Assembly: GCA_033764955.1 (NCBI GenBank)
Contig: JANRIL010000020.1
Coordinates: 64,001-128,000 of the forward strand
Length of the DNA stretch: 64,000 nt
Direction of reading: 5' to 3'
Origin: Cyanobacteriota bacterium
GTDB taxonomy: Bacteria; Cyanobacteriota; Cyanobacteriia; Thermostichales; Thermostichaceae
Under the pieces are notes generated by a model. The model saw only the letters and a program-made list of their open reading frames with translations, was not told the origin of the DNA and ran no database searches. Positions 1-42,509 of this stretch are shown here, piece after piece (positions within the stretch are counted from its first letter, which is position 1; the number at the start of each line of letters is the position of its first letter). The position numbers were made by a program, and so were the translations under genes.

Positions 1-501
1 TACAACGTCACTGGCGGTGAAGGCTTCATTGTTGATGCTCAGACTGGTGAACTTGGACAAAATACTCCTTTCGATGTTGGTTCCATTTCTGGCAACCTCT
101 TCATTGATACAGGAGCCTATGTCGCTGGTGACACCCCTGTTTACCTGAATACCTTTGTCAACCTAGCTCCTGCCTCTGGACCAGGACCTTTTGCTAGTGC
201 TTTAGAAGGTGAAGGAACTATCTTGGTTGCTTTCCGTAACAACGTGATTGAGCCAAATGGTGCTTTCATTACTCCAGCTGAGCAATTCCCTGCCACTGGC
301 TTCTGCGGACGTGATGAAATAATTGATATCAACGTAGCTGGCACTCAGTTGCTTAACTTTGTTGATACTGCTGGATTCTTTACTACTCCTCAGATTGTGT
401 GGGGTAACCCTGAATCTGCTCTTTGTACTGAGTTGAGCCAAGGAACTGCTCCTGCTGTCTTCCTACAGCCTTTCCCAGAAGGTATCATGTTCCAACCTTA
501 A
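1..501 (+). CDS. 3' part of a larger gene (start outside window); probable secreted/surface beta-rich protein
   Basis: Frame 1 is open from base 1 (YNVTGGEGFIVDAQTGELG...) to TAA at 499-501. It is G/T/A/P-rich with a strong T-ending codon bias. Confidence 0.7.
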   Translation, partial: YNVTGGEGFIVDAQTGELGQNTPFDVGSISGNLFIDTGAYVAGDTPVYLNTFVNLAPASGPGPFASALEGEGTILVAFRNNVIEPNGAFITPAEQFPATGFCGRDEIIDINVAGTQLLNFVDTAGFFTTPQIVWGNPESALCTELSQGTAPAVFLQPFPEGIMFQP

Positions 502-553
502 TCGTTCTATCTAGCCTCACTCTTTGATGTGTAGCTAAATAGGTTTTCAGGTG

Positions 554-581
554 AGAGGGAGATTTATTCTCCCTCTTTTTT
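554..581 (+). terminator. Rho-independent terminator
   Basis: AGAGGGAGA-TTTAT-TCTCCCTCT hairpin followed by a T run. Confidence 0.75.
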
Positions 582-814
582 CATGCGTTATTTTAGTTCG
601 CAAAAGATTGTTGGGTAGACCTATAAATAATTCGAGAAAAGCACTTCTAATATATGTCAAGGTATTGAAAAGCAAAAAATATATGATACTCTTCGCTTAA
701 GAGGATATTTGAATTAAGTCACGATATCTCTCGAAATTCTTAATCCAAGTTAAATGCTTAGGTCTTTACTAAGCCAGCTTCCCTTATCCCAATTTTCATG
801 GAGTAACTGGGCTC

Positions 815-1297
815 ATGTATTTTCAAGAAAAAATAGATAACTATAAAACAAAATCCCTGATTTCTCTAACTAGTCTTGCTGCGGCTTTGGTTATAGCAGG
901 CTGTAGCTCAGAAACCCTAACTACTCAGATCCCATCTACAGCTTCCACCACTTCTGCTAACCTAGCTGCTCCTCCAATTCAAGCCCCTGTCATTTCTAGC
1001 GTCAGACGTAAGGGAGGCTCCTCATTAAGACCCAATCTGACCATTGAAGTTATTGGGGCTAACTTTACTGCCTGTGAGGGATCTTTTGTAACCTTTGGAG
1101 TTGTTACTCCGGTGGGAGCTGTTAATCAGATTATTGCTGTGCCCGCTGAGGAATTTACTATAGTTAATGACAGCTTAATTATTGTTGATCAGCTTCCAAG
1201 AGGGGCAACTCGTTTTTCTGTGACTGTTACTAACGAGTGTGGATCTGACTCTACTCCTTTCCTACTTTTAGGCATTGCTTCATCCATACTTTTTTGA
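815..1297 (+). CDS. Lipoprotein with IPT/TIG-like Ig fold (paralog 1)
   Basis: Lipobox VIAG-C; S/T-rich linker; 'IEVIGANF', 'FTIVNDSLIIV' and 'VTVTN' pattern typical of IPT/TIG domains. Confidence 0.65.
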   Translation: MYFQEKIDNYKTKSLISLTSLAAALVIAGCSSETLTTQIPSTASTTSANLAAPPIQAPVISSVRRKGGSSLRPNLTIEVIGANFTACEGSFVTFGVVTPVGAVNQIIAVPAEEFTIVNDSLIIVDQLPRGATRFSVTVTNECGSDSTPFLLLGIASSILF

Positions 1298-5565: not shown

Positions 5566-6258
5566 CTAGGAACATAGCCTGAGTTTCTGAAGCAATTGTT
5601 CATGCTCAGATGACTGGATCCCTTGTTGCAAAACCCTCAGAACTTGAGGCATATCATCGTGAATCAGAGCATTCATATCTAACCACAGTCCAGGAAAAAT
5701 CCGGCTATGAAGGATCCCGTTTTCGTCTGGAACTTGTTGAATATAGTCACCTTCGATCAGCTCAAACCAGCTTAATTTTTGCTCTAAGACTTGCCAGACA
5801 ATATATTCTTGAACCCCATTGCGACGGTAAACGGTTTTCTTTTCATACAAATCATTCGATACACTACTCGCTGCCACTTCTGCCACAAGTTCTGGGGCAC
5901 CTTCAATGTACCCCTCTTGACTGAGGCGAGATTGTCCCCCAGTTGAAATAAGCAAAACAGCATCCGGTTGAAGTTCATTATCCAAATCTAACTGAACCGT
6001 GGGGTTGTCTCCCATTTTGAGTCCCTTGGTATAAGCTTCATAAGTTCCCAACCAAGTCATGATCTGACCATGAGGTCTGGCATGAGGATCCAGTCTGAGC
6101 GGTGAAGCCACGAAAACGACTCCTTCAATTAGTTCGGCTTTCTTGAGGTGAGGCATGGCGTGATACCGTCGCTCAAATTCGCTCCTCGACAGGTGATCCC
6201 CGCTTTCGAGAGGGGGGGGTGAGGGAGATCGGGAAGTAGCTCTAAGTGTCTGCGGCAT
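5566..6258 (-). CDS. Uma2 family endonuclease
   Basis: LESGDHLSRSEFERRY, KAELIEGVV, QPDAVL, GAPELVAEVAASS, YRRNGVQEYIVW. Confidence 0.88.
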   Translation of the reverse strand: MPQTLRATSRSPSPPPLESGDHLSRSEFERRYHAMPHLKKAELIEGVVFVASPLRLDPHARPHGQIMTWLGTYEAYTKGLKMGDNPTVQLDLDNELQPDAVLLISTGGQSRLSQEGYIEGAPELVAEVAASSVSNDLYEKKTVYRRNGVQEYIVWQVLEQKLSWFELIEGDYIQQVPDENGILHSRIFPGLWLDMNALIHDDMPQVLRVLQQGIQSSEHEQLLQKLRLCS

Positions 6259-6473: not shown

Positions 6474-7763
6474 ATGACGGCTTTATCCACCTTGCCCTCA
6501 GCTTCTCCTTCTCCCGCCTATATTTGTCCTCTCGATCAAACCTGTAGCTATCTACAGCAGGCCACGCAAGAATTGGGTCTGGATCCAGGTATCCTGGCTA
6601 TTTTAAGTGCCCCGCGCAAGGTGATCACCGTCTCCATTCCGATTCATCGAGAAAGCGGACAGATTCAGGTGTTGGCGGGGCATCGGGTGCAGCACTGCGA
6701 CGTCCTTGGCCCGTATAAAGGGGGCATCCGCTACCATCCAGCGGTCACCCTAGCGGAGGTGTCTGCCTTGGCAATGTTGATGACTTGGAAGTGTTCGCTC
6801 TTGGGCTTACCCTACGGTGGCGCAAAAGGGGGAATTGCCATGGATCCCAGCCATTACACAGTTGGGGAATTGGAGCGCATCACCCGCCGCTATGCCAGCG
6901 AATTGAGCAAAGATATTGGCCCTTCTACAGATATTCCTGCCCCTGATATGGGAACCTCGGCTCGTGAAATGGCCTGGGTGATGGATACCTATTCTGTGAA
7001 CGTGGGTCATGCCGTACCCGGAGTGGTAACAGGCAAGCCGATCTCAATTGGCGGTTCCTATGGGCGGGAACTGGCCACTGGACGGGGGGTGATGATAGCG
7101 GTGCGAGAAGCCCTGCAAGATCGCGGTCACAGCCTAGCGGGATCCCGTATTGTCATTCAAGGATTTGGCAATGTGGGGGCAGCAGCGGCACTGTTGATGC
7201 ATCAAGCCGGCGCCAAAATTCTAGCGGTTTCCAAAGGAGGGGGGGGACTTTACCATCCCGATGGACTCGATATTCCCGCCCTTAAGCAGTATGTCAAGCT
7301 TCACCACGGCCAATGGACAGGGTTCGCAGGATCCCAGCCCATCAGCAATGCGGAGTTGTTGACATTGCCCTGTGAAGTTCTAGTTCCGGCAGCCCTTGAA
7401 AATCAAATCACCGACCAGAATTGCCAGCAAATTCAGGCACAGATTGTGGCAGAAGCCGCCAATGGACCGGTCACCCTCCCGGCAGATATGAGTTTGACGG
7501 CACGGGGTATTACGGTCTTACCGGATATTTTGACCAACGCGGGTGGTGTGGTGGTCAGTTATCTAGAGTGGGTACAGGGCATTTCCTACTTGTTTTGGGA
7601 TGAAGAACGGGTGAATCACCAAATGGAAGAACTGATGGTGCGAGCCTATCGACGAGTGGTCAAAGAGTCTCAGCAACGGCGGATCCCCTTACGGTTAGCG
7701 GCTTACACCTTGGGTGTCGGCAGAGTCGCTCAGGCTCTCACTGACCGTGGCTTATACCCCTAG
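6474..7763 (+). CDS. gdhA: Glutamate dehydrogenase (Glu/Leu/Phe/Val dehydrogenase family)
   Basis: GPYKGGIRY, GGAKGG, PAPDMGT, GFGNVG, PDILTNAGGV. Confidence 0.9.
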   Translation: MTALSTLPSASPSPAYICPLDQTCSYLQQATQELGLDPGILAILSAPRKVITVSIPIHRESGQIQVLAGHRVQHCDVLGPYKGGIRYHPAVTLAEVSALAMLMTWKCSLLGLPYGGAKGGIAMDPSHYTVGELERITRRYASELSKDIGPSTDIPAPDMGTSAREMAWVMDTYSVNVGHAVPGVVTGKPISIGGSYGRELATGRGVMIAVREALQDRGHSLAGSRIVIQGFGNVGAAAALLMHQAGAKILAVSKGGGGLYHPDGLDIPALKQYVKLHHGQWTGFAGSQPISNAELLTLPCEVLVPAALENQITDQNCQQIQAQIVAEAANGPVTLPADMSLTARGITVLPDILTNAGGVVVSYLEWVQGISYLFWDEERVNHQMEELMVRAYRRVVKESQQRRIPLRLAAYTLGVGRVAQALTDRGLYP

Positions 7764-9232
7764 CTAGGCCAATGCAACCACTCCGCTAGAAAGGGTGGCA
7801 TGGGCAGCAAGATCATGATCATCAAAAACAGAGCCACCAATACCCAAATCTCACGACTATCATCAATCTCGGTGATTTCATTCAAAGGAGGGCGTTCCGG
7901 TTCTCGCACCAAAAATAAAATCAACAAAGCCCAATAGAGCGCCACAATATTACTCAGGGAGGCAATGGCTAAAAAGATTAAGCTGACCACAGTTGTCCGT
8001 CCGGCAGTTTTGCGACCATAGACCGCCTGAACCAAGCGCCCTCCATCCAACTGTCCGGCAGGTAACAGGCTCAACGCCGTGATGCCCAATCCAATCCACC
8101 CCACCGCTACCAGAGGATGGATGCCAATAACATCGGACTGAAGAGCGGATCCCATGACCATCTGGGCTAGTGTACCCACTAAAATTGAGCTGCGAAACAA
8201 AACGGTGGGTAGATAAATCTCTCCCATCTGACCAGACCAAAGCAGTCCCACCAATAGCAGACCCAGGGATAAAAGACCTCCCACCGCAGGCCCTGCCAGC
8301 GCGATATCGAATAGAGCGCGTCGATCAGGAAGTGGAGATTCGATACGGTTAAGGGATCCCAATGTGCCGATGCCCGTGGTGGGAATGAGAAAGAGCGGGC
8401 TAAGGCGCACCCCATAGCGCTTCGCCATCAGATGATGCCCTAATTCATGCCCCAGCAAAGTCGCCAAAATCCCGATCGCAATGGGCAGCGCTTCCCACCA
8501 CCGCCCGGCTGCCTCCATCAGGCGAAAGCCCAGCAAATTTGCCCCAACTTCTAAAGTCGTCAAACAACTTGCTAACCCTAACCCCGTCGCCAACGCCCAA
8601 ATTCCGTAGGAGGTGGGTTGATTCACCACCGATGCGGGCAACACCACCACGGCAGGCTTCTCCTGAGTATCCTCCACCAAAAACAGGCAAAACCCTTCCC
8701 CGATTACCTGCCGCAATCGCTCCGTCAGCCGCTCCAAAGCGACTTGGGGATCCAGCCGTAAATTTCCCTTAAAGATTGCCCCCTGTCCATAGGGGATCCG
8801 TTCCGTGACAAAAAAGCTATCCACCCCAAAAATAGCCTCTATCGCCTCTCGATCTTGAGCGGTCAGGCTGGTTTTGGTTTGGCTCTGACCAGAGTCTCCC
8901 TCCTCTCTGGCTAGCTCCAAGTCTAGAGAAAGCGACTCGCCTGAGTGTCCCTGGTTAGCTAGCTCCTCCTTTGCCAAGCGCCGTACCCAGCCACCCAACA
9001 AAATATAAAGTCCGGTAAAGAGCAACAGACTAAATATGAATCCTGCCACATTCCAAGAAATGCCCAAAGCTGGCAAGCCCAAAGACAACACCCAAGGCAG
9101 GATCAGCAGGAGGCTTTGCAGCCATGCTAAGAGAGCCACCCGTCCCCGCTTCCAGGCTCGTCGCAATCCCCAGCCCAAAAAGGCCAGCGCTGCCACCATC
9201 AAGAGTGGGGTGATTTCATTGACAATGTTCAT
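7760..9232 (-). CDS. Site-2 (M50) membrane metalloprotease, EGY-like
   Basis: HELGH zinc motif, AGP, LLPAGQLDGG, multiple TM segments. Confidence 0.88.
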   Translation of the reverse strand: MNIVNEITPLLMVAALAFLGWGLRRAWKRGRVALLAWLQSLLLILPWVLSLGLPALGISWNVAGFIFSLLLFTGLYILLGGWVRRLAKEELANQGHSGESLSLDLELAREEGDSGQSQTKTSLTAQDREAIEAIFGVDSFFVTERIPYGQGAIFKGNLRLDPQVALERLTERLRQVIGEGFCLFLVEDTQEKPAVVVLPASVVNQPTSYGIWALATGLGLASCLTTLEVGANLLGFRLMEAAGRWWEALPIAIGILATLLGHELGHHLMAKRYGVRLSPLFLIPTTGIGTLGSLNRIESPLPDRRALFDIALAGPAVGGLLSLGLLLVGLLWSGQMGEIYLPTVLFRSSILVGTLAQMVMGSALQSDVIGIHPLVAVGWIGLGITALSLLPAGQLDGGRLVQAVYGRKTAGRTTVVSLIFLAIASLSNIVALYWALLILFLVREPERPPLNEITEIDDSREIWVLVALFLMIMILLPMPPFLAEWLHWPS

Positions 9233-9330
9233 GGTTGAGCAGAGTGACAGGGCAAAAGGGGTGCATCCTTCAGCTTATCAAACCCCTTCTCCTCTCTTGT
9301 TGGCAGGTTGGTTGGCTTAACCGGGCTGGC

Positions 9331-10434
9331 CTAGCCGAGGGCGGGTTGTCCGACCGCCGCCGCGGATGGGGTTTGCTGCATCCGGCGCGTGATAGGGCTG
9401 GGGAGAGGTTTGATCAGGAATAAGCGCAGAAACTCCAGGGCATTGGCGGCGTAAAAAGGTAGCTTGCGGAGGGTTTTCAGGGATCCCTCTCCACGGGCAA
9501 TGGCTCTGAGGCGGTGATTGTTGGCGACACAGCGATCCAGCGCCGCCACAAACTCGGGATGCTCGACATGCAAAACCACCGGGAACACCTTGCCAGCATC
9601 CGCATTCGTTTTGCGGATCACTTCCAGATCATAGGTTTTCGGATCTAACCCCAGTAGTTGGTAAAACTCAGGTCGCTCCGCCACATCATTCAGATACATC
9701 GTGGCAAACACCGACAACAAAAAGAAGCGACACCAGAGGTGAGCCGCCAGCCCTCGCAACAGCTTCGGCTGACTCGAGAGCATCAACGAAAAGAAATCCC
9801 CATGCCGACTTTCGTCCTGGCACCAGTTCTTGAAGAAATTAAAGATGGGGTAAACCCGATGTTCGGGATGGGCTTCTAGGTGACGATAGATCAAGATATA
9901 GCGCCAGTAGCCAATCTTCTCAGACAGATAGGTGGCGTAGAAAATAAAGCGGGGGGCAAAGTAGGTATAAGACTTGTTTTTGGTCAAAAAGCCCAAATCC
10001 AGAGCCAAATCAAAGTCACTCATGGCTCGATTGAGGAACCCAGCATGACGAGCTTCATCTCGGCTCATCAGATTAAAACACTCCGCCAAGACCGGACTGC
10101 TCTGCTTCAGCTTACGGGATAGTTCCTTATAGAGCAGAAAGCCAGAGAACTCAGCGGTGCAGGAGCGCTCCAAAAACTCCACAAACAACCGCCTCACCTC
10201 TGGATCTAGGTGATCCCACGATTGCTCAAACTCGGATCCCCGCACAAAGTGGTGTTGGTTATAGTCGGTGCGAAACTCCTTGAGCATCGCCTCAAACTCA
10301 GCCGCTGAGCCACCGATATCCATCCGGGCAATCGCCTCAAAATCAGTGGTGTAAAAACGCGGGGTCAAGATATTCTCGCTGGGAACACGAGCTTGAGTAT
10401 CAGCAGGTTTGGGGGAGAGGGTAGCAGAGGTCAT
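9331..10434 (-). CDS. acsF: Mg-protoporphyrin IX monomethyl ester aerobic oxidative cyclase
   Basis: [32 protein letters not shown] and DESRHGD di-iron motifs. Confidence 0.95.
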
Positions 10435-10954
10435 AAGTTCATCAAGGTAAAAAACGCAGATAGTAGGGAGCGCAAGCCCTAAATTGAGGAAAGGAAACTC
10501 AGTTTAGTTAGGATAGCCCCATACCTAAGCATTGGGCTGAGGAGAAACAAAGGCTGACTGCCCCCTCAGCAGTTTACCAGTTGCCTTGTGACTCGTTAGA
10601 TAAGAAGTGTTACCTACCCACGGGCTGTTGTTGCCCCATTCGGCCAGTTAGCCATTCTCTGCTGAAAACCTCCTACTCTGGGGCTGCTTGCCTCGCAGTC
10701 AAAGAATCTCAAATCTGAAATCTGGTCAGACCCAGATCCCTGGTGTAAAGTTATGATTATTGGGATAGACATCTTCTGCTGCCACGTAGCCATCTGCAAT
10801 TGAGTCTTATGCAGAATATGTGTAAAGTGGTAGACGATATGCGTTATGGCTGTATCATGTCTTTCCAGGATTAACTGCTGACTTTGGCAGAGTAATATCT
10901 GAAAGCCCAAGGTACGGTTCTAATCGGTGTGAGGAAAAGAACAAGGAGAGAAAC

Positions 10955-12973: not shown

Positions 12974-13300
12974 TTATTCTGCAATGACTGATGCTGAATT
13001 AAAGCAATATTTTCTTAAACATCGTGGAGATCAAGCTGCTTTTCAACCATATAGTCATTCCAAATAAGAATGCGACCACCTAAATCTTGATATCCAAGCT
13101 TTGAGAGATTTTGGGTTTCTCAAACTAAATTGGAACAACTATATCTAGACAGAATTAATCAACGTCCACACAGGATTATTGCTAGTCCTGATGATCCTGA
13201 TTTTGATGAAAAAGTGCAAGCAGCAATTCGGCAAAAACTAAAAGCAGCAAGAAGCCGCCGCAATCAGCAGGCTAATAATTCAAATGCAGCGGACGGTTGA
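12960..13300 (+). pseudogene. DUF6887-like protein interrupted by a MITE
   Basis: MSQTNYSAMTDAELKQYFLKHRGDQAAFQP|YLDRINQRPHRIIASPDDPDFDEK... The frame is restored exactly when 13052-13141 and one TA are removed. Confidence 0.8.
13052..13141. mobile_element. 90-bp MITE of IS630/Tc1-mariner (ISY100-like) type
   Basis: TA target duplication (13050-51 and 13142-43). Terminal IRs TAGTCATTCCAAATAAG / CTAAATTGGAACAACTA (13/17 match). No transposase ORF. Confidence 0.8.
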
Positions 13301-13357
13301 GAACTGCTGGTGCTGAGTTCGAGGTCATCTACCGCCGCTGATTTGAGGCGGTTATCA
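13270..13357 (+). other. attC-like site (degenerate)
   Basis: GGCTAAT...CAAATgCAGCGGaCGGT...ACCGCCGCTGATTTG...GTTAT; arms pair with two extrahelical bases. Confidence 0.6.
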
Positions 13358-20521: not shown

Positions 20522-21529
20522 GTGAGGAAGATGCTCATGACGTTGTCAAAATCAGTCATCGCCTGTCTCCTTTTGGGACTATTGACAACCGCCTGTCAAC
20601 CCCAATCCTCTGATAACTCCCAGAGCACCCCTTCCGAAACCACCCCCCCTGCTTCCTCCCCCACCCCCCAACCCTCTCTTGATCCGGCAGGGGATCCCTC
20701 ACTCCCCCCTTCCCCCCAGGTTGAGGCAAGCCCTGAACTAACCACTGAACCAATAGCAATGGGGGATAGCAGTCAAACCTCCCTCGATTGGGCAGGAGTC
20801 TATCAAGGGGTTGTGCCCTGTGCCAGTTGCTCCGGCATTGAAACTACCCTCACCCTCAATCCCGATCGTTCCTACCGCCTGACCCTCCGCTATCTGGGTG
20901 AGTCGGATGAGGAGATAGAAAGGAGCGGAACGTTTAGCTGGAATGAGCAAGGCAATACCATCACCCTCAGCAATAGTGACAATGCCCCTAGCCAATATCT
21001 CGTGGGAGAAAATCAGTTGATTCAACTGGATCAGCAAGGGGAACGGATTACGGGGGGGCTAGCCGACCAATACATCCTCAGCAAAATGGATAGTTCCAGT
21101 GAGAGTTCCAGTGACAGCTCCAGTCGCTTATCCCAGGCTAGTCCGTTGGGTGAGGAGCCATCCACAACTTCTAAAAATCCTCTGTTTGATACCCGCTGGC
21201 AACTGATTGAGCTAAGAGGGGAACCGATAGAAGTTCGTTCCGATGCCCAAGCGGTACCATTTCTTCTCTTCAACACTAAGGACAATGCCTTACAAGGCTC
21301 TGGCGGCTGTAACCAATTGCGAGGATCCTATCAACGGCAAGCGGGCAACCGTCTGAGTTTCTCGCAGGTGGCTACCACCCAAAAAGCCTGTGCCGATATG
21401 GCTCTGGAATCTGCTTTTTTGGAGGTATTGGGGATGGTGGACAACTACACCCTCAGCAATGACCAGCTCAGTTTGCATAAAGCTAAAATGGCTCCTCTCA
21501 TGCGTCTTCAGGCGGTAGAAGCTCCGTAA
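20522..21529 (+). CDS. Lipoprotein with NlpE N-terminal domain plus META domain
   Basis: LTTA-C lipobox; WAGVYQGVVPCASCSGIETTLTL; WQLIELRG...GSGGCNQ...TTQKAC. Confidence 0.85.
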   Translation: MRKMLMTLSKSVIACLLLGLLTTACQPQSSDNSQSTPSETTPPASSPTPQPSLDPAGDPSLPPSPQVEASPELTTEPIAMGDSSQTSLDWAGVYQGVVPCASCSGIETTLTLNPDRSYRLTLRYLGESDEEIERSGTFSWNEQGNTITLSNSDNAPSQYLVGENQLIQLDQQGERITGGLADQYILSKMDSSSESSSDSSSRLSQASPLGEEPSTTSKNPLFDTRWQLIELRGEPIEVRSDAQAVPFLLFNTKDNALQGSGGCNQLRGSYQRQAGNRLSFSQVATTQKACADMALESAFLEVLGMVDNYTLSNDQLSLHKAKMAPLMRLQAVEAP

Positions 21530-21584
21530 ACCGCCCTTATTCACGACCTATCCACAACATTCTCAGGGATCCAAGAGGCCGAAG

Positions 21585-22413
21585 ATGCCTGATTACGCCA
21601 CCCTGCCGTTTTCCGCCGCATGGGTTTGGCTGTCGGACAATCTCTCTGAGCGAGCGCCAGGTGACTGAGCGAGGACTGACGGTGGAGAGCCTCAAGTTGG
21701 GGTGGGGGATGGTGTTTGTTACCAAGACCCAGGCTCCGGCAAGGAGACGCTGATCCGCTTGGAGGCTGAGCGGGGATTTGAAGGGATCCCTGGGGCTAGT
21801 AGGTCGCAGCAACGCTCGGAGATGATGCGCCAGATTTTGCGGCGATTGGATCTGGTGAATGCCGCTTGGGTGCGGCAGGAGATGGCAGCGATTGATCAGG
21901 GAATTAAGGAGCGGCGTTCACCTCCAAGCTGGGTGCAAAGTGCGATGGGACAGGCAGAGACCCTGGATCAGGTGGAGACCGAAGATCCGCAATAAGGTAG
22001 ATCGAGAGCGGGCTTACGTGGTGGATGCCGATGGCACGGTAGTCCTGACTAAAGACGGTGAGGCCTTGTCGGTGGACTTCACCTACGAGGAGATGCAATT
22101 GATTCGGGGCAAGGTGTTTACCCACAATCATCCCAAAGGGGGATCCTTTTCTCGTGAAGATATCAACTTTTTGCTAACCGTCTACCCATCAGAGATGAGA
22201 GCAGTGAGTCGAGATTACCGATACTCAATGAAACTGCCCGATAATCCTATCGACGCATTCTTCGAGATCAGAAAGATATTTGACCGGGTTAAAGAGTCTG
22301 TGCGACTGGAACTGGTAGAGCGAGTCAGGTCTGGCGAATCAACCCTTATTGCAGCCGAGCAGCAGTTTATGCACTTGTTAGCTGGCTTAGTTACGGGTGG
22401 TGATTGTAGTTGA
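21585..22413 (+). pseudogene. Mu-like phage head morphogenesis protein gpF (MuF) with C-terminal HNHP/JAB-like domain; internally deleted and frameshifted
   Basis: MPDYATLPF joined out of frame to PPHGFGCR-TISLSERQVTERGLTVE (MuF PPxGxxCRC-like motif). Later frames give ERAYVVDADG...FTHNHPKGGSFSREDI...EMRAV. Confidence 0.65.
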
Positions 22414-22497
22414 AAGGTTACTGGTTGGGATTCGATGCTCTAGCCAACCTTCAAGACAGCGGCTATTCAGAAAATAAGGCGCTATACTGACAGATAT

Positions 22498-24168
22498 TTG
22501 ACCATCGAAGATAAAACTATGTTGAGAATTCAAGATTTAAACCTTGGTTTTAATGATGCTGAAAACTATAAAAGAAGTGAGAATAAGAGCCTTTTAAATA
22601 AAGTGTTTTTTAGGACAGACGAGCTTGATAGGCTTTGCGAGAGAAGCACGTTTTTCCTGATTGGTGAGAAAGGAACTGGAAAAACTGCTTGTGCTGTCTA
22701 CTTATCGAATAACGATTACAAAGATACACTATCATCAATTAATTATATTAGAGAGACGGACTATCAAAAGTTTGTTCAGATGAAGAAGAGAGAGCATCTT
22801 GCTCTTTCTGATTATGTAGATATTTGGAAAGTAATTCTATATCTACTGATCAGCAAAAACGTTAGTGAAAATGAGCCAAATAGTTTACTATTACCTAAAG
22901 CTATTAAGTTTCGCAATATTAATTCGGCTGTAGATGAGTATTATGCAAGAGCATTTTCTCCAGAAATCATAAATGCAATTAAGTTTGTAGAGAAATCCAA
23001 AATAGCTGCTGAACTTGTATCAAAATATGCCAAAGCTAGCGGAGAAGAAAGCGAAGAAATAGCGTTTTCTGAAAGCCTTTTTCAAATCAATCTCATGTAT
23101 GTCCAGAAGAAATTTGAAGAAGCATTCTCATCTCTAAAACTACAGAAGAATCATCTGCTGTTCATAGATGGAATTGATATTAGACCATCACGAATTGATT
23201 ATGAAGACTATCTTGAATGCGTTAAAGGCTTAGCAAACGCAGTATGGGCAATCAATAACGATGTATTTCCCAAAATAAAAGATTCAAAAGGACGGCTTAA
23301 AGTTGTGCTTCTAGTAAGACCTGATATTTTTGATTCCATAGGTTTGCAAAATCGGAATAATAAGATTAGAGATAACTCTGTTCTATTAAATTGGAATACA
23401 ACTTATAAAAATTACAGAAACTCCAAGTTGTTTGAAATGGCTGGAAAGTTGGTGGGGACTCAGCAAAATCCGCAAGTTCAGTATGATAAGGCTTGGGATT
23501 ACTATTTTCCCTACACAATCGAAAATAAAGCTAATAACAAGCAAAGCGAAAATGATCCATCATTTATTGGTTTCTTGAGATATTCTCTTTATCGCCCTAG
23601 AGATATTGTCACAATGCTCTCTATTCTTAAAGAAAATTTTATTGAGCAGAGACAAGATCCTAATAGAGTATTTTCTGAAGCGGATTTCTTTAACGCTGAG
23701 TTTGTCAGAAAGTATTCGGAATATCTGTTAGGTGAAATAAAGGATCAGTTGTCTTTTTACTACACGGAAAATGATTATCAACTTTTCCTTAAATTCTTCG
23801 AGTACTTGAAAGGAAAGAGCCAGTTTTCGTATGATGATTATCTCAGTGCTTATCAAGCGTTTGTAGGATATCTAGATTCAAATTCAATTAGAAGACCAAA
23901 ATTTTCTGAAGCGCCTGACGTATTTCTTCAATTTCTCTATGAGTTGAACGTCATTTTTTATATTGAGAAAGTATCGGGCGGAAACTTCATAAGACTATGC
24001 CTTCGAGAGCGAAACCCAACTAACATTTCTCCAAAAGTTAAAACACATCAAACATATCAAATTCACTACGGACTAATCGAAGAGCTTAACGTAGGTAAGA
24101 AATACACTACGCTTGAAGTAGCGTTTCGGCAGGCTTTCAATAGACCTCAGAAAATTGAGAATCAATAA
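22498..24168 (+). CDS. P-loop ATPase (Sll1717/FunZ-like), cassette 1; ATG alternative at 22519
   Basis: LGFNDAENY, Walker A GEKGTGKT, Walker B LLFIDGID, RPDIF, YRPRD; strongly AT-rich and lacks GGGATCCC. Confidence 0.8.
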   Translation: MTIEDKTMLRIQDLNLGFNDAENYKRSENKSLLNKVFFRTDELDRLCERSTFFLIGEKGTGKTACAVYLSNNDYKDTLSSINYIRETDYQKFVQMKKREHLALSDYVDIWKVILYLLISKNVSENEPNSLLLPKAIKFRNINSAVDEYYARAFSPEIINAIKFVEKSKIAAELVSKYAKASGEESEEIAFSESLFQINLMYVQKKFEEAFSSLKLQKNHLLFIDGIDIRPSRIDYEDYLECVKGLANAVWAINNDVFPKIKDSKGRLKVVLLVRPDIFDSIGLQNRNNKIRDNSVLLNWNTTYKNYRNSKLFEMAGKLVGTQQNPQVQYDKAWDYYFPYTIENKANNKQSENDPSFIGFLRYSLYRPRDIVTMLSILKENFIEQRQDPNRVFSEADFFNAEFVRKYSEYLLGEIKDQLSFYYTENDYQLFLKFFEYLKGKSQFSYDDYLSAYQAFVGYLDSNSIRRPKFSEAPDVFLQFLYELNVIFYIEKVSGGNFIRLCLRERNPTNISPKVKTHQTYQIHYGLIEELNVGKKYTTLEVAFRQAFNRPQKIENQ

Positions 24169-24202
24169 TTGGAGTGAAGTTGAAATCTACTGAGTTTTCG
24201 CC

Positions 24203-24289
24203 AGCTAACAACCCGGTTGGAGCGGACGTGCATAGTTCTTTTGTCTATCGTTCTAGTTTTCTGGTTGCCGCTCAACCGGAACGTTGAGC
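24203..24289 (+). other. attC site 1
   Basis: AGCTAAC..CCGGTTgGAGCGG...CCGCTCAACCGG..GTTGAGC. Confidence 0.85.
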
Positions 24290-24342
24290 CTAGGACGGTC
24301 GTGCTGAGACACTGAAGTGGATCATTCAACGGGAGGTATTTT

Positions 24343-24711
24343 ATGTCCGTATTTCGCAAAGATCAGAACGAGGTACACAGCCTTCACGGCAACCACATCG
24401 TCGGTGTTGCCACGCCTACCAGCGGCGCAAAGCAAGTTGAGATGTGGCACGGTCGCATGGATGCAAACTCCGCTACCCCACCGCACAGCCACGACACCGA
24501 AGAAGTTGTCCTGTTCCTGAAAGGCAGTGGTCGAGCCACGGTTGCCGACGCGGAAGTTCGCTACCACGCAGGGGACACACTGATCCTGCCGGCTGGCCAT
24601 GTGCACCAAATCTTCGCCGACACCGACAGTGAGTTCGTTTCAGCCAGTCCAAGCGGTGGCACGGTCAAACTTCCAGATGGTGTGGTTCTGGATCTTCCAT
24701 GGCGCAAGTAG
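24343..24711 (+). CDS. Cupin domain protein, cassette 2
   Basis: PPHSHDTEEV...G and GDTLILPAGHVH cupin motifs; GGAGG RBS; GC-rich codon usage. Confidence 0.88.
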   Translation: MSVFRKDQNEVHSLHGNHIVGVATPTSGAKQVEMWHGRMDANSATPPHSHDTEEVVLFLKGSGRATVADAEVRYHAGDTLILPAGHVHQIFADTDSEFVSASPSGGTVKLPDGVVLDLPWRK

Positions 24712-24716
24712 CTTCG

Positions 24717-24785
24717 GCCCAACAACAGGTTCCAGTGCGACGTCCTCGCCTTCGGCGAGGACGCGCCTGAACCTGGGCGTTATAC
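24717..24785 (+). other. attC site 2 (canonical, 69 bp)
   Basis: GCCCAAC-AA-CAGGTTcCAGtGCGaCGTCCTCGCC-TTC-GGCGAGGACGCGCCTGAACCTG-GGC-GTTATAC; three extrahelical bases. Confidence 0.92.
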
Positions 24786-24845
24786 GGCACAATAAATGAT
24801 GGTTTATGCAGATGAAGAATAGTCTATGTCGGTAAAAGAAGAAGT

Positions 24846-25253
24846 ATGTCGATAGAGGAAGAAGCCAAAGCGGTAGTGCGTCACTACGTCGAAGCATTTA
24901 ACCAAGGTGATTTAGATACACTGAAGGCACTGCTCACTGAGGATGCTGAGATTCAGGGTGTAATGGGCAAAGGTCTTATTGAGAAGATTGAGCCTATTTG
25001 GCGACAACTCATCGAGGGCTACGGTATGCAACTTAAGATCGAGGAGTTAATCGCGGAAGGCAATATCGTGGCAGCAAGGTATGTTGAGACAGGAGTTTTC
25101 AGATCACCAGCGTTTGGGAATCAGCCAACGGGAAAATCTTACGAGCTTGTTGCAATGGAATGGTTTGAAATAGAAGGGGGTAAAGTTAAACGCCGTTGGG
25201 GCGCTAGGGATGCTGCATCGCAGGCACGGCAACTAGGCATTCCTCTGCTTTAG
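24846..25253 (+). CDS. SnoaL-like ester cyclase (NTF2-like), cassette 3
   Basis: KAVVRHYVEAFNQGD, IEELIAEG..VAAR, PTGKS, GGKVKRRW. Confidence 0.85.
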   Translation: MSIEEEAKAVVRHYVEAFNQGDLDTLKALLTEDAEIQGVMGKGLIEKIEPIWRQLIEGYGMQLKIEELIAEGNIVAARYVETGVFRSPAFGNQPTGKSYELVAMEWFEIEGGKVKRRWGARDAASQARQLGIPLL

Positions 25254-25267
25254 CCTGAATACATGCC

Positions 25268-25356
25268 GTATAACATAATTCGCTTGGAGTGGACGGAACA
25301 GAGGTTATCTGTGGGTGTTCAAGGTTATCTACCGCCGCAAGACTTCACCGTTGGGC
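25268..25356 (+). other. attC site 3 (degenerate)
   Basis: GTATAAC...CTTGGAGTGGACGG...AAGGTTATCTACCGCCGCAAG...GTTGGGC. Confidence 0.7.
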
Positions 25357-25463
25357 TGCTCAGTTCATATACTCAGTTCGTATAAGTTCATATAATGGAG
25401 AGGTAGTTCATTGGCTCTCTCCCAATACTTAGGGAATATCTGATATGAACAATATTCAGATGA

Positions 25464-25913
25464 ATGGTCAAGCTCATCACCACTGTCACTGACACTGACC
25501 TCTGGCAACTCTTTGCTCGGATCGATACAACTTTACGTAACCCTCAGCCCCTCTACCAAGCCTGAGCCAATCACCTCAAATCCCGCGTCGTCGCCGCCTT
25601 CAAACAAGAAACCTCACCCGCTGATCAAGCATGGCCGGAACTTAAGAGCGCCACCATCCATCGCAAAAGCCGGAACTCCCGCAGTATCAACAAGAAGCTT
25701 CGAGATACAAGAACTCTCTATGACTCAATAGCTGCTCGTGCGATGCCCGATGGCGCGGCAATCGGCACCAATCAGCGAGTGGGATCCTACAGTCTGGGGG
25801 CAATCCACCAATACGGCGCGCCCCGCCAACGGATCCGGCTGCGTCCGTTTTTGCCTGTGGACGCAAATGGCAACCTTCTGGAGAAAGACATTTTAAAGAG
25901 GCGGTTGGTTTGA
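25464..25913 (+). pseudogene. Mu-like phage virion morphogenesis protein gpG with a premature stop
   Basis: One frame: ...PLYQA*ANHL..AFKQETSPADQAWPELKSATIHRK...LRDTRTLYDSI...IGTN...GAIHQYG...RPFLP; in-frame TGA at 25563-25565. Confidence 0.8.
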
Positions 25914-26077
25914 CTCAAGACTGGCTGAATAAAGCGAAGATAGCTCCTCTCATGTCTTTTGAAGTGGTAGAAGCTCCCTAATTGGCTCTTATCACCTATC
26001 CATCCTCAAAACATCCTCAAACAATTGCAAATCCTTCTAAGCTAGGGGAGGATTGGTCAAGAAAGGGATCCCGGATC

Positions 26078-26713
26078 ATGGTGAGGGTGTTGCTGCCTTT
26101 GGTGGATGGCTTTGAAGAGATTGAAGCGGTGACGGTGATCGATATTCTGCGGCGGGCTGAGATAGAGGTGGTGGTGGCAGCACTAGGGGAGATCTGGGTA
26201 ACGGGCAGTCATGGCATAGTGCTCAAAGCGGATACAGGGTTGGGGGATCTCCTGAATGCATGTGGGGGATCCCTGGCGGCGGACTGTCAACAGCTAGCTA
26301 AGCAGTTTGATGGATTGGTGTTGCCGGGTGGCCCTGGCACAGCCACCTTGCAAGCAGACGGGCAGGTTGGGGAATTGGTGCGGGCTTTTGCTGACCAGAA
26401 TCGCTGGCTAGCCGCCATCTGCGCGGCTCCCATGGTCTTGGCTCAACAGGGGATCCTCCAGCAAAAAGCCGCCACTAGCTACTTCAGCCGCGAGGTTTAT
26501 CAGCAAGCCAGGGCAGGGCAGATCACCTTGAATGTGGTGACAGGACCTATTGCCGACTATCAACTGGATCCCGTCGTGGTGGATGGCAACGTGATCACCA
26601 GCCGAGGGGCAGGTACGGCGGTAGCCTTTGCGCTGGCATTGGTGCAGGCATGGTTAGGCGAATCACGGGCGCTAGCAATTGCTCAATCCATTCACGCCCC
26701 TTGGCCGATCTAG
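26078..26713 (+). CDS. DJ-1/PfpI (YajL/ThiJ-like) family protein
   Basis: GFEEIEAVTVIDILRRA, LPGG, AICAAP, ITSRGAGTA. Confidence 0.9.
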   Translation: MVRVLLPLVDGFEEIEAVTVIDILRRAEIEVVVAALGEIWVTGSHGIVLKADTGLGDLLNACGGSLAADCQQLAKQFDGLVLPGGPGTATLQADGQVGELVRAFADQNRWLAAICAAPMVLAQQGILQQKAATSYFSREVYQQARAGQITLNVVTGPIADYQLDPVVVDGNVITSRGAGTAVAFALALVQAWLGESRALAIAQSIHAPWPI

Positions 26714-42422: not shown

Positions 42423-42509
42423 TCCCAACAATCCCAAGGCATCGGAACAAAGTTATGCGATCGGTGAGTTGCCAAGGTTATCGGTGTCCGGTGATTGGGA
42501 ACGTTATCT
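42423..42509 (+). other. attC-like site closing the MNT-HEPN cassette
   Basis: TCCCAAC..TCCCAA...AAGGTTATC...TTGGGA-AC-GTTATCT. GCATCCCAAC complements the cassette start GTTGGGCTGC at 41649 (9/10). Confidence 0.65.

Follow-up and report, generated by a model that had tools for sequence, protein, structure and literature searches.

Three integron cassettes in a cyanobacterial phage relic are best explained by integrase action in trans at a secondary GTT site

Introduction

How do three integron-type gene cassettes come to lie between the remnants of two phage genes, on a contig that carries no integron integrase gene? This question is raised by a 4.45-kb island in a 64-kb stretch of a cyanobacterial genome (contig C42, GenBank JANRIL010000020.1), which we refer to as the window and whose numbering is used here for all positions that carry no contig label. 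The assembly (G000) comprises 3.8 Mb in 48 contigs and is 89% complete. A preliminary description of the window placed the cassettes between the F and G genes of a decayed Mu-like prophage and offered two origins for them: either a transposable cyanophage had carried the cassettes as cargo or a host integrase had inserted them in trans, using the phage relic as a landing pad. The best explanation, and one that we consider probable, is that the integron integrase (IntI) of the host, supplied in trans, placed three complete cassettes at a secondary GTT (attG-type) site, close to the 3' end of a gene that derives from a phage.

Three cassettes and their attC sites

Positions 22378-25350 are made up of three co-oriented cassettes (Table 1), whose open reading frames (ORFs) are predicted to encode a Sll1717-family P-loop ATPase (NCBIfam NF047389, 208.6 bits against a cut-off of 75), a cupin (Pfam Cupin_2, E 3.5e-12) and a SnoaL-like protein (Pfam SnoaL, E 1.8e-16). 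The contrasting composition of these three same-strand ORFs, to which the preliminary description had drawn attention, is confirmed by their GC contents of 0.32-0.37, 0.57-0.60 and about 0.46, respectively, against 0.515 for the genome. All cassette boundaries lie at G|TT, and each cassette start (TT...) is complementary to the R'' box of its own attC recombination site. In cassette 1, GTTAGCTGGC at 22377-22386 and GCCAGCTAAC at 24200-24209 are exact reverse complements (10/10); in cassette 2, GTTGAGCC at 24283 is complementary to GGCCCAAC at 24716 in 7 of 8 positions; and in cassette 3, GTTATACGGCA at 24779 is complementary to TGCCGTATAAC at 25264 in 11 of 11. All six of these end motifs had been listed in the preliminary description, and each was recovered at the position given for it there.

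The attC sites were scored with a covariance model, R1, which was built only from the nine attCs beside the intact integrase gene (intI) on contig C9 and includes no window site. On the + strand, R1 recognizes attC1 at 24203-24289 (50.6 bits), attC3 at 25268-25356 (45.3 bits) and, in a local search of 21400-26100 with filters off, attC2 at exactly 24717-24785 (17.4 bits, E 0.0027), bearing out the earlier proposal that an attC stands behind each ORF. All three sites are imperfect palindromes of the form R''-L''...L'-R' that end in GTT. The second is of a shorter type (70 nt) and has the strongest hairpin when folded as a single strand (z -5.3, a value that none of 200 shuffles equalled). Of the four same-family genomes used as controls for R1, three lack any match at E<=1 and one has a single match (E 0.0106). 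Across 20 aligned attC sites, 82.9% of cells are paired versus 26-47% in slid controls, 13 of 22 pairs have changed on both sides, and none of 500 shuffles reaches the observed covariation score; these values come from an alignment that was fitted to R1 and is hence biased toward the model. In this alignment, the three outermost R''/R' pairs do worst, as one would predict if the bases after G|TT were part of the next cassette. The R1 alignments also show, on the 5' arm, two single-base bulges that are conserved. An ad hoc attC scanner that combined the R''/R' match with fold energy returned 2054 candidates and missed the window sites; it was used only for the first C9 sites.

Folding of the sites bears on whether they are attCs at all, or ordinary terminators or chance palindromes that happen to stand behind three unrelated genes. 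As free single strands, attC3 forms no minimum-free-energy hairpin (z +1.15) and attC1 reaches only z -2.0, and a search of Rfam, which has no family for such sites, gave no match at E<=1. However, the independently built R1 model gives 45-51 bits to these two sites with near-zero matches in the control genomes, the ends of cassettes 1 and 3 are complementary at every position compared, and a terminator scan finds no excess over shuffled sequence (5 sites versus 4.1), such that this alternative is effectively refuted. A promoter scan also gives no more sites than shuffled sequence does. Judged by their sequence, the three window cassettes are genuine and their attCs are of the same family as those of the intI-linked arrays in this genome.

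Recurrence in other genomes was looked for, and found, with cassette 3. Its SnoaL-like protein has a counterpart with 89% identity in a genome of another family (G218), where an attC lies 19 nt past the end of the gene, and it has matches at E<=1e-20 in 3 of 300 other genomes of the class and in none of 20 genomes of the same family. PADLOC, applied to four ORFs, reported no defence system apart from a chance-level Cas8a match at 13.7 bits.

Integrases and attC sites across the genome

A search with TIGR02249 found no intI on contig C42, and the earlier remark that none is visible therefore holds for the whole contig; the array, lacking intI on its contig, is not a complete integron, although no search for attI was made. 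The preliminary description had suggested looking for an IntI elsewhere in the genome, and two intact genes are present, at C9:19-960 (463 bits) and C38:63588-64529 (451 bits), both above the TIGR02249 cut-off of 265. Matches to this model lie on C9, C38, C36, C4, C30 and C27 and include several intI fragments.

Genome-wide, R1 gives 81 matches at E<=1 and 72 at E<=1e-3, the latter on 25 contigs. By a 4-kb rule, these 72 matches fall into 44 loci, namely 14 clusters of at least two sites and 30 single sites, and every multi-site cluster is strand-uniform. Two of the 14 clusters adjoin intact intI genes. The window array, with three sites in 24200-25356 and no integrase near, is one of the other 12, which are attC site clusters without an integron integrase (CALINs; at least two attCs within 4 kb). 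With 44 loci scattered in this manner, no special reason has to be sought for one of them lying in a phage relic, and the particular link between integrons and Mu-like phages that the preliminary description had drawn from this array is not upheld. The closest relative of attC3 is the attC that ends the C9 array, the cores sharing 91% identity over 55 nt; in many related genomes, the attC3 core is found at about 80-86% identity. Each of four other cyanobacterial genomes, which represent four families, has 14-38 attC matches. The presence of two intact IntI, together with window attCs of the same type as the intI-adjacent ones, fits the option of a host integrase acting in trans.

The integron at the start of C9 (C9:1-8470) is complete, with intI at 16-1116 (- strand) and nine attCs (+ strand) that end at 8470, followed by a host gene (- strand). 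Two more single attCs are found in the window, at 13270-13357 (70.7 bits) and 42423-42509 (44.1 bits); each lies directly after a small + strand ORF and is read as a stray single cassette.

Junctions of the array and mode of insertion

The left junction falls inside a 184-amino-acid ORF (Table 1), whose protein match to its closest paralog in the genome (C34b) spans residues 33-173, residue 173 being the junction codon, and whose last 12 codons are cassette DNA. No attC was found upstream of 22377 with filters off (the best candidate scores 6.3 bits, E 5.3), and no hairpin is present upstream of the left junction (z +1.9). The crossover thus lies at a GTT without attC- or attI-like structure, and a bare G|TT of this kind, with neither an attC nor a hairpin before it, fits insertion by IntI at a secondary (attG-type) site. 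GWT has been described as the consensus for genomic cassette insertion, through which single attC sites lacking integron integrases (SALINs) and small CALINs were proposed to arise (10.1101/2022.09.11.507474), and secondary sites have been considered as a source of CALINs in work that names Cyanobacteria among the integron-bearing phyla (Cury et al. 2016, PMC4889954).

In the mechanism that we propose, the host's own IntI would have acted in trans on the secondary GTT site in the phage-derived gene, and the cassettes would have been inserted in situ, whether together as a single multi-cassette circle or one after another. The right junction would be the G of GTTGGGC at 25350, and the bases after this last G (TTGGGC...) would represent the original target, which would formerly have read GTTGGGC. 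The target is one of four paralogous modules, which combine a MuF linker with a variable C-terminal domain and gpG, and its role as a landing site would be incidental.

Several observations weigh against this account. Concerning the cassettes, the attC calls depend on R1, a surrogate for the IntegronFinder attC model made from the genome's own intI-adjacent sites; R1 gives attC2 a weak score; and attC3 forms no minimum-free-energy hairpin. At the left end, DNA similarity to the closest paralog stops at about 22263, about 115 nt before the junction, and only the protein match reaches residue 173. At the right end, the 113 nt after attC3 match no part of any paralog module, and the ORF, if rejoined to 22377, would run for 14 more codons to a TAA at 25393-25395, which is a weak argument as about half of random sequences would allow the same. 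Lastly, an empty-site allele was not found, with no same-genus genome and no metagenome match to draw on, and for this reason the right junction and the clean nature of the insertion are only inferred.

The boundaries of the array also help to judge whether it is instead a piece of a true integron of this genome that rearrangement or homologous recombination, and not IntI at a secondary site, brought to this place. Rearrangements and insertion sequence (IS) elements have been proposed as one source of CALINs (PMC4889954), and the intI fragments on several contigs suggest that arrays in this genome have been broken up. Against relocation, the left boundary is exactly G|TT, the first cassette is complete, with a start that pairs with its own R'' in all 10 positions, neither a partial cassette nor an attC remains to its left, and the ORF list and a Pfam scan contain no IS or transposase ORF within the 4.45-kb island. 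We therefore regard relocation as unlikely and insertion by IntI at a secondary site as the better account.

A 13-nt unit is present in three tandem copies (85-100% identical) at 25359-25394, directly after the last attC.

The phage-derived target

The preliminary description had taken the two flanks of the array for pseudogenes of F and G, the former a member of the MuF family. For gpG this is correct: the frame at 25566-25910 matches Phage_tail_S with 39.4 bits against a cut-off of 24.3, the single in-frame TGA of the pseudogene (25563-25565) corresponds to TGG in an intact paralog, and the gene is 78-82% identical to the intact copies C11:41083-41559 and C34:49802-50260. For F the claim stands in part. 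PF04233 (MuF) matches neither the window frames nor the genome, and the left arm has no Pfam match of any kind. Its sequence shares 78-82% identity with two genomic paralogs and aligns with the residues just past PF04233 in the full-length MuF proteins P0006, P0043, P0009 and P0021. When the intact frame of the C11 paralog was compared with 1.84 billion representatives, 170 matches at E<=1e-3 were obtained. Ten of these proteins were scanned with Pfam, and in five of them (P0006, P0009, P0043, P0021 and P0012) MuF is above its cut-off and directly N-terminal to the region matched by the left arm; P0018 is just below the cut-off, and the other four lack MuF. The 184-amino-acid ORF is 50% identical over residues 33-173 to the paralog C34:70071-70493, and its domain shares 44% identity with the C-terminus of P0153, a MuF protein of 477 residues. 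As these homologies indicate, the stretch called F is the 3' portion of a gene of the MuF family whose C-terminal domain is variable, and it is represented here by the post-MuF linker and the C-terminal domain and not by PF04233 itself.

In a protein atlas, the domain of the 184-amino-acid ORF falls into unnamed clusters only, and the nearest named ones (Phage_min_cap2 at 0.87, Prok-JAB at 0.82 and RadC at 0.80) serve as leads only. A search for homologues of near length returned only the ORF itself.

This relic is one of four copies of what we call the F'-G module, about 1.3-1.5 kb in size, the others being C34:48801-50293, C11:40116-41559 and C34 from about 69950 to 70990; in the window, the module is split into 21590-21935 and 25461-25931. 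In each copy, a left arm of about 300 bp and a gpG arm of about 470 bp enclose a middle that varies; the ends of the copies are near-identical, and each copy is found alone between host genes. The middles comprise one PBECR1-like ORF, one GNAT-like domain and two JAB-like domains, the PBECR1 match being below its cut-off (23.4 versus 27.6). No immunity gene could be identified in the window copy. Given their common left and right ends, it is unlikely that the four copies are independently decayed prophages. We infer that they are orphan units, dispersed through the genome, of a putatively toxic MuF polymorphic-toxin locus of phage origin.

As in the F-G neighbourhood of phage Mu, and as in the head clusters of two other cyanobacterial genomes (G151 and G283), the MuF-family gene of the window is followed by Phage_tail_S (gpG). 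Unlike in Mu, the window relic has no portal, terminase or other head genes, and an imperfect 84-nt repeat takes the place of the 5-bp target duplication that Mu transposition leaves. No other Mu genes lie alongside it and its flanks are the host NlpE/META and DJ-1 genes, although no transposase search was made. Portal_Mu was not found in the 89%-complete genome, by a weak search that matched no control genome either. The earlier term 'decayed Mu-like prophage' is consequently too simple for a discrete module that exists in four copies with the same ends and host-gene flanks.

The interval between F and G in other modules and genomes

If the cassettes had arrived as phage cargo, a Mu-like temperate phage would have gained them between F and G before lysogeny and decay. 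In MuF-type loci, the interval between F and G is by nature a variable slot; the four paralogs differ in it, and in other cyanobacteria it holds 0, 1 or 3 extra ORFs. In G151, a Mu-type head cluster encodes Gp27, terminase, Portal_Mu, MuF and gpG, with a gap of 4 bp between the last two. In G283, Portal_Mu is followed by a MuF protein with an intein, a 78-amino-acid ORF and gpG. In a third genome, G067, a MuF-CdiA_C gene is followed by a second, stacked module, and internal repeats of 102 nt (91%) and 99 nt (95%) match the two arms; this locus shows two modules stacked by arm-to-arm recombination. Homologs of gpG are present in 10 of 300 other genomes of the class.

Nevertheless, no attC lies between F and G in these three regions, two of which have Mu-type portal genes, nor in the F-G interval of the three paralogous modules of the genome, and cassettes are found in the window copy only. 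Furthermore, the window attCs are of the host's own type, as exemplified by the likeness of the attC3 core to the last C9 attC, and neither a MuF domain nor a Mu portal was found in the 89%-complete genome, the portal result being weak in that no control matched. The comparison with F-G intervals of other cyanobacteria, which the preliminary description had itself put forward, thus yielded no cassettes, and its option of cassettes carried as cargo by a transposable cyanophage is in our estimation very improbable. A more far-fetched proposal is that the arms of the orphan modules (about 300 bp on the F side and about 470 bp of gpG) would let them swap with the corresponding region of an infecting Mu-like phage, and that a module with cassettes could so hand them over by homologous recombination. 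If true, this would provide a viral vehicle for integron cassettes and phages could sample the host cassette pool; we give it even less credence than the cargo hypothesis. Overall, the phage connection appears coincidental and the phage relic a bystander target of the integrase.

The MuF-family protein of G283 (C35, 7018-9711) is 897 amino acids long, and its intein stands right after the MuF domain (Intein_splicing E 2.3e-15, Hint_2 E 6.2e-08). In G067 (C1:791000-810900, region positions 7588-10907), the MuF-CdiA_C gene is followed by a chimeric ORF, composed of the first 99 nt of gpG, the MuF linker and DUF4258, and then by gpG. The sequence just upstream of these stacked modules contains fragments of ISL3 transposase, as well as an attC (5566-5656, - strand).

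Comparison with known systems

The window array resembles CALINs as described in 2016 (PMC4889954) in having three attCs well within 4 kb, no intI on the contig and one promoterless-looking, co-oriented ORF per cassette, and in that IntI is encoded elsewhere in the genome, as is the case for about half of the CALINs of that paper. It differs from them in that both of its ends can be read, the left one being a bare GTT in coding sequence, and in its cyanobacterial host with an unusually dispersed attC load of 44 loci in 3.8 Mb. With attC x attG insertion (10.1101/2022.09.11.507474), and with the older 'secondary site' insertions, it shares a G|TT crossover that fits GWT and a target without attC- or attI-like structure; the product of attC x attG insertion is, likewise, a stray cassette or small CALIN. 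That work concerned IntI1 in E. coli and mostly single cassettes, whereas here three cassettes and a different integrase are involved, and the event is known from sequence alone.

The target has its own parallel in MuF polymorphic toxin loci (Jamet et al. 2017, PMC5576092), in which, too, a variable C-terminal domain comes after a conserved region on the MuF side. Further points of resemblance are the PBECR1-like, GNAT-like and JAB-like domains of the paralogs, CdiA_C in G067 and small ORFs before the next head gene. In contrast to those loci, the MuF domain is missing in all four copies and the modules lie between host genes and not in prophages; in that study, 96% of muf genes were in prophages or remnants. 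A term search of the text of Jamet et al. 2017 (PMC5576092) found neither 'orphan' nor 'truncated'.

The mechanism proposed here, IntI biology in trans, is already known, and the array is best explained as a clear natural example of it and not as a new link between phages and integrons. What it adds is a clean natural example, from outside the Proteobacteria, of cassettes inserted away from any attI, with a crossover that is legible to the base and a host that has two integrases. The 72 attC matches in 44 loci, together with the 14-38 matches in each of four other cyanobacteria, suggest that much of the cassette pool of this group is located outside the integron proper, which bears on the origin of CALINs and single stray cassettes.

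Layout of the locus and host flanks

The island lies between a host gene for an NlpE/META-domain lipoprotein and one for a DJ-1/PfpI protein (Table 1). The former has no paralog in the genome, which contains no second META gene.

Table 1. Features of the island and its flanks, in window coordinates
Feature	Position	Strand	Remarks
Host NlpE/META-domain lipoprotein gene	20522-21529	+	Left flank; Pfam NlpE E 1.9e-31, META E 2.2e-25
Direct repeat, copy 1	21474-21557		Final 18 codons and stop codon of the META gene; extends into downstream bases
Left arm, 3' remnant of MuF-family gene	21590-21935	+	Frameshifted; last MuF-domain residues and conserved linker
184-aa ORF, variable C-terminal domain of MuF-type gene	21859-22413	+	HNHP..S..D motif
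Left junction G|TT	22377-22379	+	Codon 173 of the 184-aa ORF (third base at 22377); reads CACTTG|TTAGC
Cassette 1, 1906 bp	22378-24283	+	Sll1717-family P-loop ATPase ORF 22498-24168; attC1 24200-24289
Cassette 2, 496 bp	24284-24779	+	Cupin ORF 24343-24711; short attC2 24716-24785
Cassette 3, 571 bp	24780-25350	+	SnoaL-like ORF 24846-25253; attC3 25264-25356
Spacer from array to gpG, 113 nt	25351-25463	+	Begins TTGGGC, read as original target half-site
gpG-type (phage virion morphogenesis) pseudogene	25464-25913	+	In-frame TGA 25563-25565; disturbed 3' end
Direct repeat, copy 2	25926-26009		Encodes second, divergent META C-terminus; abuts gpG end
Host DJ-1/PfpI gene	25982-26713	+	Right flank; Pfam E 3.4e-38

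A repeat search identified the imperfect 84-nt direct repeat that flanks the island, with copies that are 74% identical and spaced by 4452. It abuts both ends of the F'-G module and is unique to this locus within the genome. Searches around each of the other three modules found no flanking direct repeats, making the 84-nt repeat specific to the window copy. It could be an att duplication from an element that integrated at the 3' end of the gene, or an old, long target duplication.

A degenerate pattern of the flanking repeat had no match in metagenome contigs, no same-genus genome was found for comparison, and a gpG-seeded search for related loci over genome contigs confirmed no relative. To the left of the DJ-1 gene, synteny differs in the loci L021 and L022.

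The heptamer GGGATCC (or GGATCC) is very frequent in this genome, in coding as well as non-coding sequence, for example at 21573, 21785, 22141 and 25783, and may be a lineage-specific interspersed palindrome.

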